A stretch of DNA of 64,000 bases from an uncultured Alphaproteobacteria bacterium (lineage in GTDB: Bacteria; Pseudomonadota; Alphaproteobacteria; CAAHEQ01; UBA3637): NCBI GenBank assembly GCA_944391735.1, contig CALXUR010000002.1, positions 2,484 to 66,483 of the forward strand, given 5' to 3'. Of the stretch, positions 15,048-59,022 are shown in pieces. How positions within the stretch are numbered: the stretch's first letter is position 1; the number at the start of each line of letters is the position of its first letter. The notes below the pieces were generated by a model. That model made no database searches. It worked only from the letters and a program-made list of their open reading frames with translations, and was not told where the DNA came from. The translations under genes and the position numbers were made by a program.

Positions 15048-15116
15048 ATTCTCTTGCATTTAAAACGGATTTGTCGTATCTTAACTCCCGTTAATTTTTT
15101 TATTAGGAGATTTTTT

Positions 15117-16883
15117 ATGAATCAATATCGCACACATACTTGTGGCGCTCTGCGTGCTTCAAACGCGGGGCAGACTGTTAAATTGTCCGGCTGGGTTCAT
15201 CGGAAACGAGATCACGGCAATCTGTTGTTTGTGGATGTGCGCGATAATTATGGTATTACGCAGTGTGTTTTGGATACGGCCAGTCCGGTTTTTCAGATAC
15301 TTGAAAAAATTCGTCCTGAATCCGTGATTACGATTGAAGGTCAAGTCGTTTTGCGTGATACGAATACGATTAATCCTAAAATGCCGACGGGTGAAATTGA
15401 AGTTTCCGTTGAATCTGTTGTTGTTCAATCTGAGGCTGAAACGCTGCCGTTGCAAGTTGTTGCGGATTCCGATGATTTATCCGAAGAGCAACGTTTGACA
15501 TATCGCTTTTTGGATTTACGCCGGGAAAAACCGCATGCCAATATCTTGTTGCGTAACCGTATGACAAAGTTTGTGCGTGACCGGATGTGGGATATGGGCT
15601 TTTACGAGTTTCAAACACCGATTTTGACGTCATCCAGTCCGGAGGGTGCCCGCGATTATTTGGTTCCTTCCCGTGTGCATAAGGGTGAGTTTTACGCTTT
15701 GCCGCAATCACCGCAACAGTTTAAACAATTGTTGATGGTTGCTGGTTTTGATCGGTATTTTCAGTTGGCACCCTGCTTCCGGGACGAAGATAGCCGCGCC
15801 GATCGCTCTCCCGGGGAGTTTTATCAAATCGACTTTGAGATGTCCTTTGTCACACAGGATGAAATTTTTGAAGTTGGTGAGCGGCTGATGTCTGACTTAT
15901 TTGCTGAATTTGCGCCGAATGCCAACATTTCAAAAGCTCCCTTTATTCATATTCCGTTTGCCGAGTCTATGTTGACTTACGGAACGGATAAGCCGGATCT
16001 GCGCAATCCCTTGGTGATTAAAGATGTGTCTGATGTGTTTGCCGGTTCTTCATTCGGGTTGTTTGCGAATATGGTGGCTCAAGGCGGTTTCGTGCGCGCT
16101 ATTCGAACACCCGGTACGGCCGCTAAACCGCGTAGCTGGTTTGATAAAATGAACGGTTTCGCTGTTGAACAAGGCATGGGTGGCCTGGGGTATATGACTC
16201 TGGCCGAAGAAGGAACAAAAGGTCCGATTGCCAAGAATCTGGATGCAGATCGGATTCAGCAATTGATTGATATCACAGCGGCACAGAAAGGGGACAGTAT
16301 TTTCTTTATTTGCGGTAAAGATGATAAAGCGGTTAAATTTGCCGGTTCTGTGCGTATGTTATTTGGTAAGGAATTGGATTTAATTGAAAAAAATGCTTTC
16401 CGTTTTTGCTGGATTACGGATTTTCCGTTCTATGAGGCGAATGAAGAAACCGGTGCTCCTGAGTTTTCTCATAATCCGTTCTCTATGCCTCAAGGCGAAA
16501 TGGATGCCTTGCTGAACCAAGATCCTTTAACGATTAAAGCGTATCAATTCGATATGGTTTGTAACGGATATGAAATTTTGTCCGGTGCCATTCGTAACCA
16601 TCGGCCGGATGTGATGTTTAAAGCGTTTGAAATTGCCGGCTATGGTCCGGAAGTGGTAAGAGAAAAGTTTGCCGGATTATTGAATGCGTTTCAATACGGT
16701 GCACCGCCGCATGGTGGTGCAGCCTTTGGTTTTGACCGTTTGGTGATGTTAATGACGGATGAAAGCTATATTCGGGAAGTGATTGCGTTTCCGTTTAACC
16801 AACAGGCGCGGGATTTATTGATGCATGCACCGTCACCCGTTACGGAAAAACAATTACGGGAAGTGCATATTAAACTGCGTTAA
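15117..16883 (+). CDS. aspS: Aspartate--tRNA ligase (bacterial type)
   Basis: OB-fold N-terminus, class II motifs ([32 protein letters not shown]) and the bacterial insertion domain. AGGAGA RBS before the ATG at 15117. Confidence 0.95.
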
Positions 16884-17080: not shown

Positions 17081-17259
17081 GTAACACATAAGGCACTATT
17101 CCTGAAAAAGTGAAAATCCCAAGCAAAACTGTAACGAAAAAAGGGTCAATAAAATGTTACAGATTTTGTAACATGAGTGAGGATATGAAGTCAAGAAAAA
17201 AGTGAAAATATAAAAAGACTTCCTGTATTTTGAGAGAAAAGAGGGATAGGATGAAAAAA

Positions 17260-17291
17260 TGTAAAAATTAAATGACCATTAAATTTTTACA
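17260..17291. promoter_or_regulatory. 32-bp AT-rich palindrome (TGTAAAAATTAA-ATGACCA-TTAAATTTTTACA), candidate operator
   Basis: Inverted repeat lies 18 nt upstream of the ATG at 17309. It is 28/32 identical to the element at 57723-57754 in front of the paralogous gene. Confidence 0.6.
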
Positions 17292-17308: not shown

Positions 17309-18637
17309 ATGAGAGGAAAAAGAGAGGCGGGGATCCGAGAAGAATCGGGACGTATTTCCACTTTGTCATCCTCGGGCTTGACCCAGGGATCCAGAAACAA
17401 GGAATCCAGAAAGGGTGATGAATCGGGACGTTCGATGGTAGAAATGCTGGGCGTTTTAGCTATCATGGGTGTGTTGGCGATTGGTGGAATAGCGGGGTAT
17501 CGATACGCAATAGACAAATACAATGCGAATGAAATTATCAATGACGTCAAAAAGCGGGCGGTTGTTATTTCGCAACAGTTGGCTGTCGGAGGAAGCGTGG
17601 AAACGCCGGAGTTCAAGCCGGAAACGGAACAGGGATATGGTGTGGAACAGGTGTTGTTGGATGACGGCTTTTTTTCGATTATCATGTCGGATGTGCCACA
17701 AGGTGTTTGTGCGCGGATTGTGGAAACGGAATGGGCTTTGCCGGTGGCGATGTATGCGGGTTCGGTCATGGCGCAAGGGGAGGGCAGTATCTGTCAGGAA
17801 AACAATCGGATGCAATTTGAATTTACGGATGATTTAAGGGCAACGAATGAAAAGCCGGAACATTGCACCAAAAAATCGGATTGTTCTTCCAAATGTGATG
17901 ATTGTATCGACGGTGTGTGTTTGGAAAATTGCCCCGCCGGTCAGGCGTGTGTGCGATCATCAACCGGCAATGTTAGTGTCCCGGATTTGTGTTGCCCGCT
18001 GGATCGCATTATGAATGGTACCTGTTGTGCTTCAATTACTTATAATGATCAAGGAGAAAAATTATGCTGTCAAAGATCAAATATGACAAGTTGTTGTCCT
18101 GAAGGAGAGTTTATGTGGAATGGTCAATGTCACAACTGTGATGACCCTACAGATTTGTATGGAATAGTGGTAAATTTTTACCGTTATTCATGTGATATGT
18201 GTCCCAATCGTGTTTCTGCCGGGTGGCAATGCCTGATAAAGTGTAAGGAGGCAGATCAAGTTGTTTGGAGAGGACGATGTTTATGCCCTGATGAACGGCC
18301 TGTTATGGGGCAGGACGGAATATGTCGTCCATGTGGTTCAAATGGTGTCTGGTCAAGTGCCTCATCTGTATCAACAGTTCACGAAATGGATAGTTGCGGT
18401 GTTGCAGCATGGTGTGGAAATATGTATTGCAGCGGAGGATATGTGTGGGCATGTGCCCCAGGTAAAATAAGTGGTGTTAACGCATTAAAGATAGATGGTT
18501 CTGCTGCTGGTGGCGGTGGATGGGCTTGTTTTTACTGCAATGAGTTACAACTTGATAAATTGAAATACAAAGCACAATGCGAATCGTGCGGCGGGACCTG
18601 GAGCGGTGCTTGGAATGACGGGACTTGTTATCCGTAA
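17309..18637 (+). CDS. Prepilin-type N-terminal domain protein with a Cys-rich C-terminal domain (pilin-like adhesin candidate)
   Basis: ESG|RSMVEMLGVLAIMGVLAIGGIAGY has Gly at -1, Glu at +5 and a hydrophobic helix. I count 34 Cys in the last ~255 aa, including four CC doublets. The start codon is uncertain because repeats lie in the leader. Confidence 0.7.
   Translation: MRGKREAGIREESGRISTLSSSGLTQGSRNKESRKGDESGRSMVEMLGVLAIMGVLAIGGIAGYRYAIDKYNANEIINDVKKRAVVISQQLAVGGSVETPEFKPETEQGYGVEQVLLDDGFFSIIMSDVPQGVCARIVETEWALPVAMYAGSVMAQGEGSICQENNRMQFEFTDDLRATNEKPEHCTKKSDCSSKCDDCIDGVCLENCPAGQACVRSSTGNVSVPDLCCPLDRIMNGTCCASITYNDQGEKLCCQRSNMTSCCPEGEFMWNGQCHNCDDPTDLYGIVVNFYRYSCDMCPNRVSAGWQCLIKCKEADQVVWRGRCLCPDERPVMGQDGICRPCGSNGVWSSASSVSTVHEMDSCGVAAWCGNMYCSGGYVWACAPGKISGVNALKIDGSAAGGGGWACFYCNELQLDKLKYKAQCESCGGTWSGAWNDGTCYP
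17342..17431 (+). repeat. In-frame palindromic-element insertion flanked by 12-nt direct repeats (GAATCGGGACGT)
   Basis: Direct repeats at 17342-17353 and 17420-17431 are exactly 78 nt apart. The palindrome GTCATCCTCGGG...CCCAGGGATCCAG lies between them at 17365-17394. Confidence 0.6.
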
Positions 18638-56104: not shown

Positions 56105-56113
56105 TATGGATTG

Positions 56114-57715
56114 TTATTTTTTACATACGGCACCAATCCGATCCGACCAACTGGCTCCTTGATTATAACTGGCTTGATAAAAAGGAGCGTACCAACACCC
56201 AAAAGATTGACCAGTCCAGTCGTATCCATTGAGCCATGTACAACGCAGTGCACCGGTAGATGTTGCATTGTTTGTCAGCATTAGAATAGCTGCTCGCATA
56301 TTTACATTTTCTATTGTTTGGATAACACCTCCAATGTCTGCAGATGTTGGGGTTTGATATCCTTGTGCTTCACACCAACTAAGGGCATTGATCCAACAAA
56401 AACTACCATTGGATGGACGAGATATAACATATCCGTTTAATAATTCTTTTAATTTTTTTCTAATGTCAGCTGCTGTAACGGTTTTGGGATCTCCGGCAAA
56501 ATAAACAGCCTTTAAAACCGATTCTTCATCCCAGTTTTCAGGAAAATATTCTGTAGATAATGCTTTGTATCGTTTTAATAATTCCTCGTCCGACAAAGAT
56601 GTGTTGCCGTCTTCATCTGCTTCGATTCTTCGACAGCTTCCGTCTCCTGTTTCAAATTTGCTAACTCCGTCGGGAACACATTCTTTGTAACTATGGAAAT
56701 ATCCTTTATCACATTTGACCTCGGAACATTTCTTTAATAAATTGGGGTTACGAAAAACGTCTTGAGCCGTTTTTCCTTGGATACAATGTTCACACTCTGT
56801 CCCGTTCCAAAAGAAACCGTTTGCTTCGTTACACAAACAAGTCGTAGCATTGGGACCGATAGAGCCAAGAGATTCCTCTGGGCAAGGTGTGCAAACGCCA
56901 TTATTGATATAAAACCCATCGGGACAAACACATGCTCCCGTATTTAAATCGAATACATTCGGTTCGTTACATTCACAAGCGGTTGCGTTTGTTGTCGTTG
57001 TCGTCATATTTTCGGGACAAGGCAAGCACTCCTTGGTTTCCTCATCAATGAAGTGATTTAACGGACAGTCGCATGATCCGGAAGAACAAACTTCATTGCC
57101 CATACACATACGTTCACATTGTTGATAAACACAGATTTCACAATTTTCTACAGGACAATCTTCATCCGAAACACATCCTCGTTTACTGGGATTAAACGGG
57201 ATAGACCGTCCATGTAACTCATCATCAAAAACAAAAGAGAGTAAAGCATCACCTTCAGGGCATTGGGGATGTGGATAACTATCTGTATCTTGAACTAAAT
57301 TCCAATAAATTTTAACAGGAAGATCCCACTCTAGCTTTAAAATATGGCTACAAACATCTTGGGGAACTTGATCAACATTCACGACAAAAAATCCAGAAGC
57401 ATGAGGATGAAGTTCTTGAGTTGTCGGAAAAACACCTTGAATTGTCGGCAAAAATTCGCTTTCATTCAATTCATCATCTTTTCTGTCTGTTGCCATTCTT
57501 TGAGCCGAAATAAGCAGTGCCCTTTGTTTAACCTCGTTGACAATATCATTAGCCATTCTTTTATTAACTAAATATCGATACCAAGTAATACCGCTCAGGC
57601 TTAATATACCGATAATCACCAGAACACCCAGCATTTCCACCATCGAACGACCCGATTCGTTTTTTAACATCCGTGTATCTTTCTTAAGTCCTTGTTTTTC
57701 TGTCATTTTTATCAT
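56114..57715 (-). CDS. Prepilin-type N-terminal domain protein with Cys-rich repeats and a lectin-like C-terminal region (paralog of 17309..18637)
   Basis: NESG|RSMVEMLGVLVIIGILSLSGITWY. Shares the pilin head region (VPQDVC...LEWDLPV). About 25 Cys in a ~190-aa stretch with a repeated C.CNE.N.F...G.C..C unit. The start may be the ATG at 57706. Confidence 0.7.
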   Translation of the reverse strand: MIKMTEKQGLKKDTRMLKNESGRSMVEMLGVLVIIGILSLSGITWYRYLVNKRMANDIVNEVKQRALLISAQRMATDRKDDELNESEFLPTIQGVFPTTQELHPHASGFFVVNVDQVPQDVCSHILKLEWDLPVKIYWNLVQDTDSYPHPQCPEGDALLSFVFDDELHGRSIPFNPSKRGCVSDEDCPVENCEICVYQQCERMCMGNEVCSSGSCDCPLNHFIDEETKECLPCPENMTTTTTNATACECNEPNVFDLNTGACVCPDGFYINNGVCTPCPEESLGSIGPNATTCLCNEANGFFWNGTECEHCIQGKTAQDVFRNPNLLKKCSEVKCDKGYFHSYKECVPDGVSKFETGDGSCRRIEADEDGNTSLSDEELLKRYKALSTEYFPENWDEESVLKAVYFAGDPKTVTAADIRKKLKELLNGYVISRPSNGSFCWINALSWCEAQGYQTPTSADIGGVIQTIENVNMRAAILMLTNNATSTGALRCTWLNGYDWTGQSFGCWYAPFYQASYNQGASWSDRIGAVCKK

Positions 57716-57722
57716 ATTTCCC

Positions 57723-57754
57723 CATAAAAATTTAATGACCCTTAAATTTTTACA
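57723..57754. promoter_or_regulatory. 32-bp AT-rich palindrome, second copy of the element at 17260-17291
   Basis: CATAAAAATTTAATGACCCTTAAATTTTTACA is 28/32 identical on the + strand to the first copy. Lies 8-17 nt upstream of the candidate start codons. Confidence 0.6.
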
Positions 57755-57896
57755 AAAATCAGTTTTCAGGTTATTTTATTCCTTGTGATGAAAAACACTG
57801 TTTTATTTGTTTTTTTCTTGATTTTAAAATCAATTATATGTTATAAAAAACTATAATAAAAAAAGGGTCATTATTTTTTTATATAATAAATTAAAT

Positions 57897-57922
57897 CTCC
57901 CCGTGTCGTCAGAAACGGGGAG
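57897..57922. terminator. Terminator hairpin downstream of the dehydrogenase gene
   Basis: CTCCCCGT-10 nt-ACGGGGAG, a perfect 8-bp stem flanked by A/T runs on both sides. Confidence 0.55.
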
Positions 57923-57946
57923 TTGTTTTTTAGTTGTTTTATTTTA

Positions 57947-58960
57947 TTATTTGATAACGTTATTTGTTATTTTTCCATTAATAAAATTGGAAATATTGTC
58001 AAATGTTGTTGCGTTGATCCGATTAATGGCATCGATTGAATTAAACGCAATATGGGGTGTGGCAATCACATTTCTGAATTGCAATAATTTTAAATTCATG
58101 GCTGAATCCAACAGGAAATCGGTGTCACTCATACGGGGCGATATAGATACTTCATCATGCAGTAAGAAGTCTTCATTTTCTAAAACATCAAGTCCCGCAC
58201 CGGCGACAATTCCTTTTCTCAATGCAAAATAAAGAGCTTGTGTGTCGATTAAGTCTCCGCGCGCTGTGTTGATGATAATAACGCCTCTTTTCATCTGATT
58301 AAAAGCGTCTTCATTAATCATATGATAATTTTCCGGTGTTGAGGGAACATGTAAAGATATAATGTCGCTTTCTCTGTAAATTGTATTTAGATCGGGAACA
58401 TATAACTCTTTTAAGGCCGGATTGGGGAAGGGGTCATAGGCAATCACTTTCATACCAAAACCTTGTGCGATTTGAATCATATGACGTCCGATAGAACCGG
58501 TGCCGATAACGCCTAATGTTTTTCCCATCAGGTCAAATCCCATATAATTGGACGTTTCAATTCTGTTATGTGCCATGTCGTTTTTGGCTTTGATAATTTT
58601 TCGAGCCAAAGCTAATAAGAGTCCAAATGCGAATTCGGCAACCGTTGTCGCACCGTATGACGGCACGTTTTCAACGGCAATTCCCCTCTTTTTACAATAT
58701 TCCAAGTCAATATGGTTGAATCCTGTCGAACGTGTCGCAATCAATTTCAGATTGGGCAGTAAATCCAGTTTCTCATTGGCTAATGTTTCCGAATGAATAA
58801 AACCTGAAATGATCCGCGTATCTAAATACGGTTCCAACATTTTGGGGGACATTTCGTTCAGTCCTTTATCAAAGAAAACCATATTAGTGTTTTCAATCGG
58901 ATGTTTTTCTGCAAAATCACGCAGTTGTTTATCAGTGTCAAAAAATAAAATATTTTCCAT
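57947..58960 (-). CDS. D-isomer-specific 2-hydroxyacid dehydrogenase (LdhA-like)
   Basis: NAD-binding motif GVIGTGSIGRHM. Catalytic-domain pattern (INTARG, ATPHIAF). Start could also be 59002. Confidence 0.8.
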   Translation of the reverse strand: MENILFFDTDKQLRDFAEKHPIENTNMVFFDKGLNEMSPKMLEPYLDTRIISGFIHSETLANEKLDLLPNLKLIATRSTGFNHIDLEYCKKRGIAVENVPSYGATTVAEFAFGLLLALARKIIKAKNDMAHNRIETSNYMGFDLMGKTLGVIGTGSIGRHMIQIAQGFGMKVIAYDPFPNPALKELYVPDLNTIYRESDIISLHVPSTPENYHMINEDAFNQMKRGVIIINTARGDLIDTQALYFALRKGIVAGAGLDVLENEDFLLHDEVSISPRMSDTDFLLDSAMNLKLLQFRNVIATPHIAFNSIDAINRINATTFDNISNFINGKITNNVIK

Positions 58961-59022
58961 TTCAAAACCTACCCTTCTTATATTAAATAGGATACTCTTC
59001 AATTAAAACAAGTTCTCTTTTT

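Follow-up and report, generated by a model that had tools for sequence, protein, structure and literature searches.

Birds and mammals commonly harbour uncultured gut Alphaproteobacteria with very small genomes and, to our knowledge, almost nothing has been learned about how these are retained in their niche. We analysed a stretch of 64,000 nucleotides (nt) from one such bacterium, hereafter called the window, with attention to an open reading frame (ORF) at 56114-57715 of its minus strand and to the intergenic region that precedes it. The ORF is present as given in a preliminary description of this DNA; it encodes a protein of 533 amino acids (aa), 32 of which are cysteines, that has the layout of a modular prepilin. 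The window is part of contig C2 in an assembly of 1.0 Mb and 20 contigs (G000; 43.8% G+C, 75% complete), and the full genome size is taken here as about 1.3 Mb. The public runs in which the stretch occurs are gut metagenomes of chickens or birds, and the database relatives are labelled 'Alphaproteobacteria bacterium' metagenome-assembled genomes, none of them with an informative family name. Positions outside the window are given below as assembly, contig and coordinates. The gene and the parts of its product are as follows:

56114..57715, minus strand: coding sequence of the modular prepilin-like protein, stop codon included (ORF list and translation)
57650..57715, minus strand: basic prepilin leader, aa 1-22, MIKMTEKQGLKKDTRMLKNESG, with predicted cleavage after Gly22 (sequence; motif in 26 ORFs)
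57191..57649, minus strand: pilin head, aa 23-175, a long N-terminal helix and a four-stranded sheet (AlphaFold2, Foldseek and family alignment)
56660..57190, minus strand: disulfide-rich stalk, aa 176-352, with 24 Cys (sequence; weak Pfam matches)
56432..56659, minus strand: helical linker, aa 353-428 (about 75 aa), with three predicted helices (structure model)
56117..56431, minus strand: C-terminal domain, aa 429-533, a divergent compact candidate for a C-type-lectin-like domain (CTLD) (profile comparison and Cys spacing)

Allele P0001, which is 94% identical, has ATA in place of the first ATG of the frame, and the second ATG (57706) is therefore the probable start. The N-terminus has the features of a class III signal peptide, that is, a basic leader, Gly at -1, Glu at +5 and a hydrophobic stretch of about 20 residues. 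Cleavage is predicted between MIKMTEKQGLKKDTRMLKNESG and RSMVEMLGVLVIIGILSLSG, and would leave a mature N-terminus that reads RSMVEMLGVL. The leader, of 19-22 aa, has the length typical of type IVb pilins. A family alignment of 44 sequences has no variation at Glu5 and Gly8 of the mature protein or at Cys122 and Cys152, and almost none at the Gly in position -1. The preliminary description had claimed that leader and head are shared with a second gene of the window, the 17309 gene, and BLASTP bears this out, with 31% identity over 324 aa (E 2e-32), from the leader through the head into a part of the Cys-rich region. Its further claim that the leader codons differ only at synonymous sites is also correct: the strings at 57627-57658 (minus strand) and 17420-17451 (plus strand) each occur once, differ at three third-codon positions and have an expectation of 0 chance matches (100 shuffles).

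The fold of the head was predicted with AlphaFold2. The model of aa 23-180 (predicted local distance difference test, pLDDT, 84; predicted TM-score 0.75) has a helix of 52 residues (2-53) packed on a four-stranded sheet, and the top PDB matches found by Foldseek are the type IVb pilins TcpA (8uhf) and CofA (9iuf, 3s0t), in filaments and in crystals. These are the subunits of the toxin-coregulated pilus (TCP) of Vibrio cholerae and of CFA/III of enterotoxigenic Escherichia coli (ETEC), matched with a probability of about 0.9 and TM-scores of 0.47-0.57. The model thus supports a type IVb-like pilin fold for the head.

Of the genes for the processing and assembly of such a pilin, one was found in G000 and others in its relatives. 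One Peptidase_A24 (prepilin peptidase) gene is present in G000 (G000:C2:144890-145597, profile match), alone among housekeeping genes. A full-length T2SSE ATPase is encoded in 8 of the 9 same-genus genomes (G003 has partial matches only) and in 15 of 15 other genomes of the same family. In G001 the ATPase gene belongs to an operon that encodes, in order, a TcpQ-like protein, a secretin, PAP_PilO, a protein of no assigned family, the ATPase and T2SSF, an arrangement that matches the thin (type IVb) pilus of R64. This operon is free of pilin genes, which are dispersed.

Beyond the head lies the stalk. The preliminary description had quoted repeated C.CNE.N.F...G.C..C units, a Thr run and the stretch CWINALSWCEAQGYQTPTSADIG, all of which are found in the translation: the two units are ACECNEPNVFDLNTGACVCPDGFYINNGVCTPCP (aa 246-279) and TCLCNEANGFFWNGTECEHC (aa 292-311), the Thr run TTTTTNAT occupies aa 238-245 and CWINALSWCEAQGYQTPTSADIG covers aa 440-462. 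Two of the assignments had to be changed. The Thr run, which had been taken for the linker to the last domain, lies within the Cys-rich region, and the real spacer is the helical stretch of aa 353-428. The term Cys-knot is not established either: searches of Pfam and NCBIfam with the whole protein and with three parts of it gave only matches below the curated cut-offs, namely weak ones to N_methyl and, in the stalk, to DUF5874 (E 5e-4) and Ephrin_rec_like (E 7e-3).

The C-terminal domain opens, right after the linker, with the motif IRKKLKELLNGY (aa 436-447), which is common to the few relatives of its subtype. With the C-terminal 182 aa as query, phmmer returned 3 matches among 1.84 billion representative proteins. 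Two are true relatives (P0047 and P0048) with the same order of stalk, linker and domain; the third, a repeat protein, was rejected as spurious. A word-indexed search with aa 340-533 among 5.8 billion proteins recovered allele P0001 alone, and tblastn in the 9 other genomes of the genus found no orthologue of the domain, only one weak match. Within G000, 17 other C-termini align with the last domain at W..A..WC.AQG and at the terminal ..C(K/E). Comparison by hhalign of a profile of the subtype with the sister domains of the WWSAKNWC type yields a probability of 96.5%, over 39 columns only, and the homologous stretch corresponds to the first ~40 residues of the domain. A pooled profile of the paralogs that includes the studied gene gave weak PDB matches, 34 of 36 of which are CTLD or Link domains (best match, the PLA2R CTLD, E 2e-4), and all 25 PDB matches of the sister domains alone are CTLDs (E 0.007-0.8). 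An AlphaFold2 model of aa 330-533, built on an 18-row alignment, contains a strand, two helices and a final strand in the order expected of a CTLD, in a poor model (pLDDT 60, with model residues 155-196, the last 45, below 50). The positions of Cys448/Cys531 and Cys492/Cys507 fit the two canonical CTLD disulfides. The Ca2+/carbohydrate motifs EPN/QPD and WND define the true C-type lectins and not the wider CTLD fold; the only EPN of the protein (aa 251-253) is in the stalk. On these grounds we treat aa 429-533 as a divergent compact CTLD-like candidate and not as a demonstrated lectin.

The CTLD-like domain also occurs without a pilin carrier, as a stand-alone ORF of 135 aa (G000:C7:23099-23503) joins a signal-peptide-like N-terminus to a CTLD-like domain with WWSAFAWCDAIG.

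An invertible segment upstream of the gene

The 231 nt that separate the upstream dehydrogenase gene from the start codon comprise a hairpin, the repeat TAATGACCCTT, 119 nt, the repeat AAGGGTCATTA and 18 nt. Neither this arrangement, with an invertible promoter directly before the gene, nor the mosaic structure presented below was part of the preliminary description. The features of the region are these:

57733..57743, no strand assigned: gene-proximal inverted repeat, 11 bp, AAGGGTCATTA on the gene strand (sequence)
57744..57862, no strand assigned: invertible segment, 119 bp (flipped metagenome contigs)
57863..57873, no strand assigned: gene-distal inverted repeat, AAGGGTCATTA on the plus strand (sequence)
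57818..57847, plus strand: candidate sigma-70 promoter, TTGATT, 15 nt and the extended -10 element TGTTATAAA (conservation in cassettes)
57897..57922, no strand assigned: GC-rich hairpin CTCCCCGT...ACGGGGAG, between the switch and the dehydrogenase gene (sequence; a terminator scan made no call)

Both orientations of the segment exist at the studied locus in public chicken-gut metagenomes. In run X1, a contig of 1381 nt consists of 57300-57743 (minus strand), 57744-57862 (plus strand) and 57863-58300 (minus strand), with 0 mismatches to the window, and its placement leaves an 11-nt shared stretch at the inversion joints. Run X10, which comes from a different study, contains both flipped joints, the distal one of which runs into the unique flank 57863-58100. 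Runs X2, X5, X6 and X8 have the orientation of the window at the distal joint. Furthermore, upstream of a paralog on contig C7 the same segment is precisely inverted relative to the gene, between the same repeats. It is unlikely that the flipped joints are assembly artefacts, because the 11-nt repeat is shorter than the word length (31) of the Logan assembler.

The proximal repeat is the core of a near-palindromic site of ~30 bp (57723-57754). This 30-nt element had been considered as a simple operator palindrome, a candidate that we rejected: the flipped contigs show that it is the end of an invertible segment. Paired sites of this kind are not confined to the studied gene. At least 19 paired-site cassettes are found in G000, with sites about 130 nt apart within near-palindromes of ~30 bp, and most of them lie directly upstream of genes of the family, including the 17309 gene. 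The cassette of the latter (window 17141-17283, ~130 bp) belongs to a second sequence class; its sites are GTAACGAAAAAAGGGTCAAT (distal) and TTAAATGACCATTAAA (proximal), and its promoter motif is directed away from the gene.

The rationale for reading a promoter in the segment is that TTGAyT-N15-TGnTAyAA is kept in 15 cassettes in spite of diverged spacers, which is how a sigma-70 promoter with an extended -10 element would be expected to behave. The motif faces away from the gene in 12 of the 13 cassettes that adjoin family genes, the studied one included, and only the cassette of the C7 paralog has it directed at its gene. Because the conserved motif faces away from the gene in the window, the copy in the window is most likely OFF and the forms in X1 and X10 ON. 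The hairpin probably serves as terminator of the dehydrogenase gene and as a stop for transcripts that leave the segment in the OFF orientation. In chicken-gut metatranscriptomes, one contig of 536 nt (run X24) is 98.3% identical to window 56981-57516, which covers the head and part of the stalk, and is nearer to the studied gene than to the C7 paralog; it provides weak evidence for transcription in vivo of the gene or of a close allele. The metatranscriptomes contained nothing over the switch or the C-terminus, and one contig from the head region is too little for an ON/OFF call.

Two small serine recombinases of G000 match NF009949, the NCBIfam family of the master DNA invertase Mpi, one at G000:C12:12831-13529 (293 bits against a cut-off of 272) and the other at G000:C2:114213-114845 (258 bits against the same cut-off). 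The gene of the second is divergent from a pilin paralog (G000:C2:112214-113920), which itself is devoid of a paired-site cassette. The tyrosine recombinases found, one XerC-like and three integrase-like, are all elsewhere than at the studied gene. The XerC-like gene (G000:C7:17720-18673) stops within a few bases of the distal repeat of the one cassette whose motif is directed at its gene; it was considered as a dedicated invertase and set back, its score (317 bits against an NCBIfam XerC-like cut-off of 335) being that of a probable housekeeping XerC. Downstream of the studied gene we found no repeats or alternative 3' segments of the kind that make up an R64-type shufflon.

A mosaic gene in a family of about 30 paralogs

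The protein has 34 tblastn matches in G000, and 26 ORFs carry a leader of the form G[RK][ST]M.E.. (the expression matched 27 times; one match is not a family member and was left out). The possibility that the studied gene and the 17309 gene form a family of two is thereby set aside: there are about 30 paralogs, of 180-680 aa, in the 1.0-Mb assembly. Many of them are at contig ends, which suggests that the repeats of the family break the assembly. About 4% of a very small genome would be devoted to a repertoire of pilus-borne, disulfide-rich adhesins. The preliminary description had seen in the two genes a family of modular surface adhesins with constant assembly ends and varied distal ends; a family of modular surface proteins is supported on this larger scale, with adhesion as their proposed role.

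Comparison of the studied gene with its paralogs revealed blocks of distinct origin:

56831..57662, minus strand: recombination block, codons 18-295, with 92% DNA identity to the paralog G000:C7:18850-20427
57624..57876, minus strand: recombination block, the switch and the first 31 codons, 96% identical to the 5' region of G000:C3:82564-83961
56114..56203, minus strand: the last 90 nt, with 73% DNA identity, and 65% over 31 aa, to a 49-codon relic at G000:C3:82275-82367

The block shared with the C7 paralog includes a 240-nt stretch that is 100% identical, and on both sides of the block identity drops to the random level. The block shared with the C3 paralog extends over 253 nt, from -161 to +92. 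The relic, which is decayed, lies ~200 nt downstream of the stop codon of this same C3 paralog, that is, of the paralog that shares the switch and leader of the studied gene; the C3 locus therefore appears to have carried such a 3' end, since displaced. In this position the relic resembles a displaced 3' cassette, like those of polymorphic toxin loci. Judged from these alignments, the studied gene is a recombination mosaic: its 5' end matches one paralog, its head and proximal stalk match a second, and its C-terminus is rare.

In a comparison with allele P0001, synonymous divergence (dS) is 0.13-0.21 in the head and stalk and 0.03-0.04 in the linker and last domain, while the ratio of non-synonymous to synonymous divergence (dN/dS) is 0.11-0.17 in the former and 0.66-1.45 in the latter (Fisher P = 0.006, on only 19 distal changes). 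This pattern fits block exchange together with relaxed or diversifying selection at the tip. For the check for positive selection that had been proposed for the C-terminal domains, these counts are too small to allow a firm claim.

The site that the gene occupies also differs between species. In the sister species G004 the dehydrogenase and the tetratricopeptide-repeat (TPR)-methyltransferase genes that flank it are adjacent, with no pilin gene between them. In the window, 9 nt (56105-56113) separate the pilin gene from the convergent TPR-methyltransferase gene, which leaves no space for a terminator; the latter gene is the end of an mreBCD-mrdA-rodA string.

Proposed mechanism, rival explanations and related systems

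We propose, with a probability of roughly 0.68, that the gene encodes a phase-variable modular type IVb-like pilin adhesin, one of about 30 recombining paralogs, under the control of an invertible promoter. In this scheme the basic leader would be removed after Gly22, probably by the A24 prepilin peptidase, and the protein would be incorporated into a pilus of the R64/TCP type (type IVb) through its hydrophobic N-terminal helix and small pilin head. Its binding end, which would stand out from the filament, would be made up of the rigid 24-Cys stalk, the helical linker and the fast-evolving CTLD-like domain. Because of its size, the protein would most likely act as a minor or tip pilin with adhesin function, rather than as the bulk subunit. 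The paralogs would retain the assembly end and swap blocks by homologous recombination. As for expression, a site-specific recombinase, most likely one of the two Mpi-family serine invertases, would flip the 119-bp segment, which lies between the 11-bp inverted repeats 18 bp upstream of the start codon and carries an outward-reading promoter, so that this promoter would face away from the gene (OFF) in the window and towards it (ON) in other samples.

Several results weigh against this scheme, and they are best considered with the alternatives that draw on them. The leader could be a membrane anchor or export signal only, and the product a pseudopilin-like protein or one tethered to the inner membrane, periplasmic or at the surface, that is processed by the A24 peptidase and never polymerised. 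The prepilin peptidase of G000 does stand alone, and neither a T2SSE ATPase nor a secretin was found in this assembly, which at 75% completeness is weak evidence. Arg at +1 of the mature protein is atypical of a pilin, a cargo of 510 aa is very bulky for a filament subunit, and the Foldseek E-values of the head (0.05-0.2) are not significant. However, T2SSE matches are present in 9 of 9 same-genus genomes (8 full-length) and in 15 of 15 others of the same family, with a complete R64-type operon around the ATPase in G001; the head model resembles pilins that do form filaments, and Glu+5, which is needed for filament packing, is invariant. Bulky modular and tip pilins are moreover known (PMC8179133, PMC9934059). 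We therefore consider a mere membrane anchor unlikely. Even less probable, in our view, is that inversion of the segment has no regulatory purpose, the element being a palindromic repeat that is mobile or recombinogenic, similar to miniature inverted-repeat transposable elements, or a pair of operators, and that a fixed promoter elsewhere drives the gene. Near-palindromes could bind a dimeric regulator, copies of the sites also adjoin non-pilin genes (on C18, on C4 and at C2:150401), and no transcript start was seen. A generic promoter scan did not return the site at 57818-57847 and listed a second candidate on the plus strand, 57749-57777, with the same direction; the promoter that we propose is read from consensus and conservation. 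Against this alternative, the -35 and extended -10 elements are conserved in the segment although the spacers have diverged, and there is little room for another promoter, since the proximal site is 18 bp from the start codon and a probable terminator hairpin closes the region distally. The orientation bias (12 of 13) and the presence of Mpi-family invertases in the genome also speak for a switch. Two points weaken the assignment of the switch to an Mpi-family enzyme: the XerC-like gene that abuts the C7 switch is a further candidate for the recombinase, and the repeat core TAATGACCCTT seems to have no obvious likeness to the B. fragilis Mpi repeat.

The preliminary interpretation was right in outline, and its lectin part is the one that is only partly supported. 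It had likened the C-terminus to C-type-lectin/DUF1566-like folds. Homology to the sister CTLD-like domains lends partial support to the first half of this comparison, over 39 columns, and the isolated C-terminal 182 aa gave no match to Lectin_C or to DUF1566 (PF07603), even at E <= 10. The structure prediction that had been suggested for the distal part gave, for aa 330-533, a model of too low quality to judge the fold; its strands and helices come in the order expected of a CTLD, and Foldseek returned no PDB match at E <= 0.001. It is thus possible, at odds clearly below even, that the domain is a lineage-specific, disulfide-bonded domain other than a lectin (e.g. for protein binding, as a decoy or as an antigenic cap) that shares one helix motif with CTLD-like paralogs. 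Its subtype profile, when taken alone, matched no CTLD among the PDB profiles and has no Pfam match, EPN/QPD and WND are absent from aa 429-533, and only 3 distant relatives are found among 1.84 billion proteins. On the other hand, the stretch that aligns is the signature region of the CTLD, with a strand and a first helix carrying W..A...C...G, the terminal ..CKK and the spacing of the four cysteines fit two CTLD disulfides, and many non-lectin CTLDs are devoid of sugar motifs, as is general knowledge for this superfamily.

A phase-variable modular pilin adhesin of this kind has parallels in several known systems. In Streptococcus sanguinis, the modular type IV pilins PilB and PilC carry a von Willebrand factor A module and a lectin module, respectively (PMC8179133, PMC9934059). 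Like the studied protein, they consist of a pilin part, made with a class III signal peptide, onto which a binding module is grafted at the C-terminus; direct adhesion by a minor pilin is likewise the role proposed here. PilB and PilC are, however, encoded by single-copy genes of a monoderm, are type IVa-like and bear a single module, whereas the studied protein has a type IVb-like head, a 24-Cys stalk and a helical linker, about 30 paralogs and control by DNA inversion. A long leader and a large variable distal part, the proposed adhesin in the studied protein, are also found in R64 PilV, in CofB of ETEC and in TcpB of V. cholerae. The likeness to R64 extends to the operon of the sister genomes (TcpQ/PilL-like protein, secretin, PilO, ATPase and platform protein), and the head is closest to TcpA and CofA. 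In R64, the C-terminus of PilV is varied by Rci-mediated shuffling of 3' segments within one gene; here, in contrast, there are many complete and dispersed genes with their own invertible promoters, variation would come from homologous exchange and the mature N-terminus is Arg.

Control of expression would resemble that of Bacteroides fragilis, for which a master invertase, Mpi, and invertible promoters are described (Coyne et al. 2003 as cited in PMC4747536; PMC10403206). Common to both are a serine invertase of the Mpi family (NF009949), many dispersed short promoter segments between inverted repeats before genes for surface structures, and a majority of copies that are OFF in the population consensus. 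The Bacteroides loci encode polysaccharides and use a -7/-33 promoter, whereas those described here precede pilin-like genes in Alphaproteobacteria, with a sigma-70-type promoter, and the link between enzyme and sites is putative. Expression of a filament adhesin that is switched or varied by DNA rearrangement, with conserved 5' and variable 3' ends that are exchanged, is likewise known from fimS, Piv and pilE/pilS. In E. coli, fimS is a single switch operated by tyrosine recombinases (FimB/FimE), Moraxella Piv inverts coding segments, and the pilS cassettes of Neisseria are silent and promoterless and serve one expression locus (pilE), as opposed to the complete genes with their own switches found here. 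Modular type IVb pilin genes that are complete, recombine with one another and are under inverton control, present by the dozen in a very small alphaproteobacterial genome, make an unusual combination. In a literature search we met no account of invertons that precede type IV pilin genes in Alphaproteobacteria, which is no proof of novelty. At least the studied copy appears to be switched by DNA inversion in natural populations, which would extend surface variation in the style of the Bacteroides master invertase to another phylum and to type IV pilins. The family would also offer, on one shared scaffold, a compact natural collection of binding domains.

Possible exchange between loci

A wider reading is that the near-palindromic sites before at least 19 genes, most of them pilin paralogs, form one genome-wide recombination network instead of separate switches. 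The same invertase would flip the segments and also join loci, thereby moving promoters and flanks and inverting large blocks and, together with homologous exchange, this would give an antigenic variation of pilus adhesins in which one (or few) would be ON at a time. The logic would be comparable to that of pilE/pilS in Neisseria and of the variant surface glycoprotein expression sites of trypanosomes, built here from invertons of the Bacteroides type. We hold this reading to be doubtful. If sites do exchange between loci, the system would add to the known cases of programmed plasticity in reduced genomes.

Two arrangements, each a single observation, suggest that the sites also recombine between loci. 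The Logan contig that contains allele P0001 (L057, 1990-2030) joins the studied gene to the upstream flank of the paralog C5:40517, with the junction exactly at the core AAGGGTCA. The fusion is devoid of the invertible segment and the flank is 99.3% identical to C5:38380-40401, which makes L057 a candidate inter-locus site-specific recombinant. The other case concerns a double cassette with three sites that lies between rlmE and a DnaJ-like gene (G000:C18:1938-2208). The locus of a pilin paralog (G000:C20:4402-4614) shares an 80-nt flank with it, the cassette being inverted and the far side different, an arrangement that goes beyond a simple flip.

A larger rearrangement may also be bounded by switches. 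In the sister species G007 the genes for aspartyl-tRNA synthetase and the dehydrogenase are adjacent (G007:C1:174700-179700). In the window these two genes (15054-16883 and 57947-59002, respectively) flank two units of pilin gene and switch at either end of a ~40-kb block that includes core genes, which suggests a large rearrangement with the switches as its bounds.

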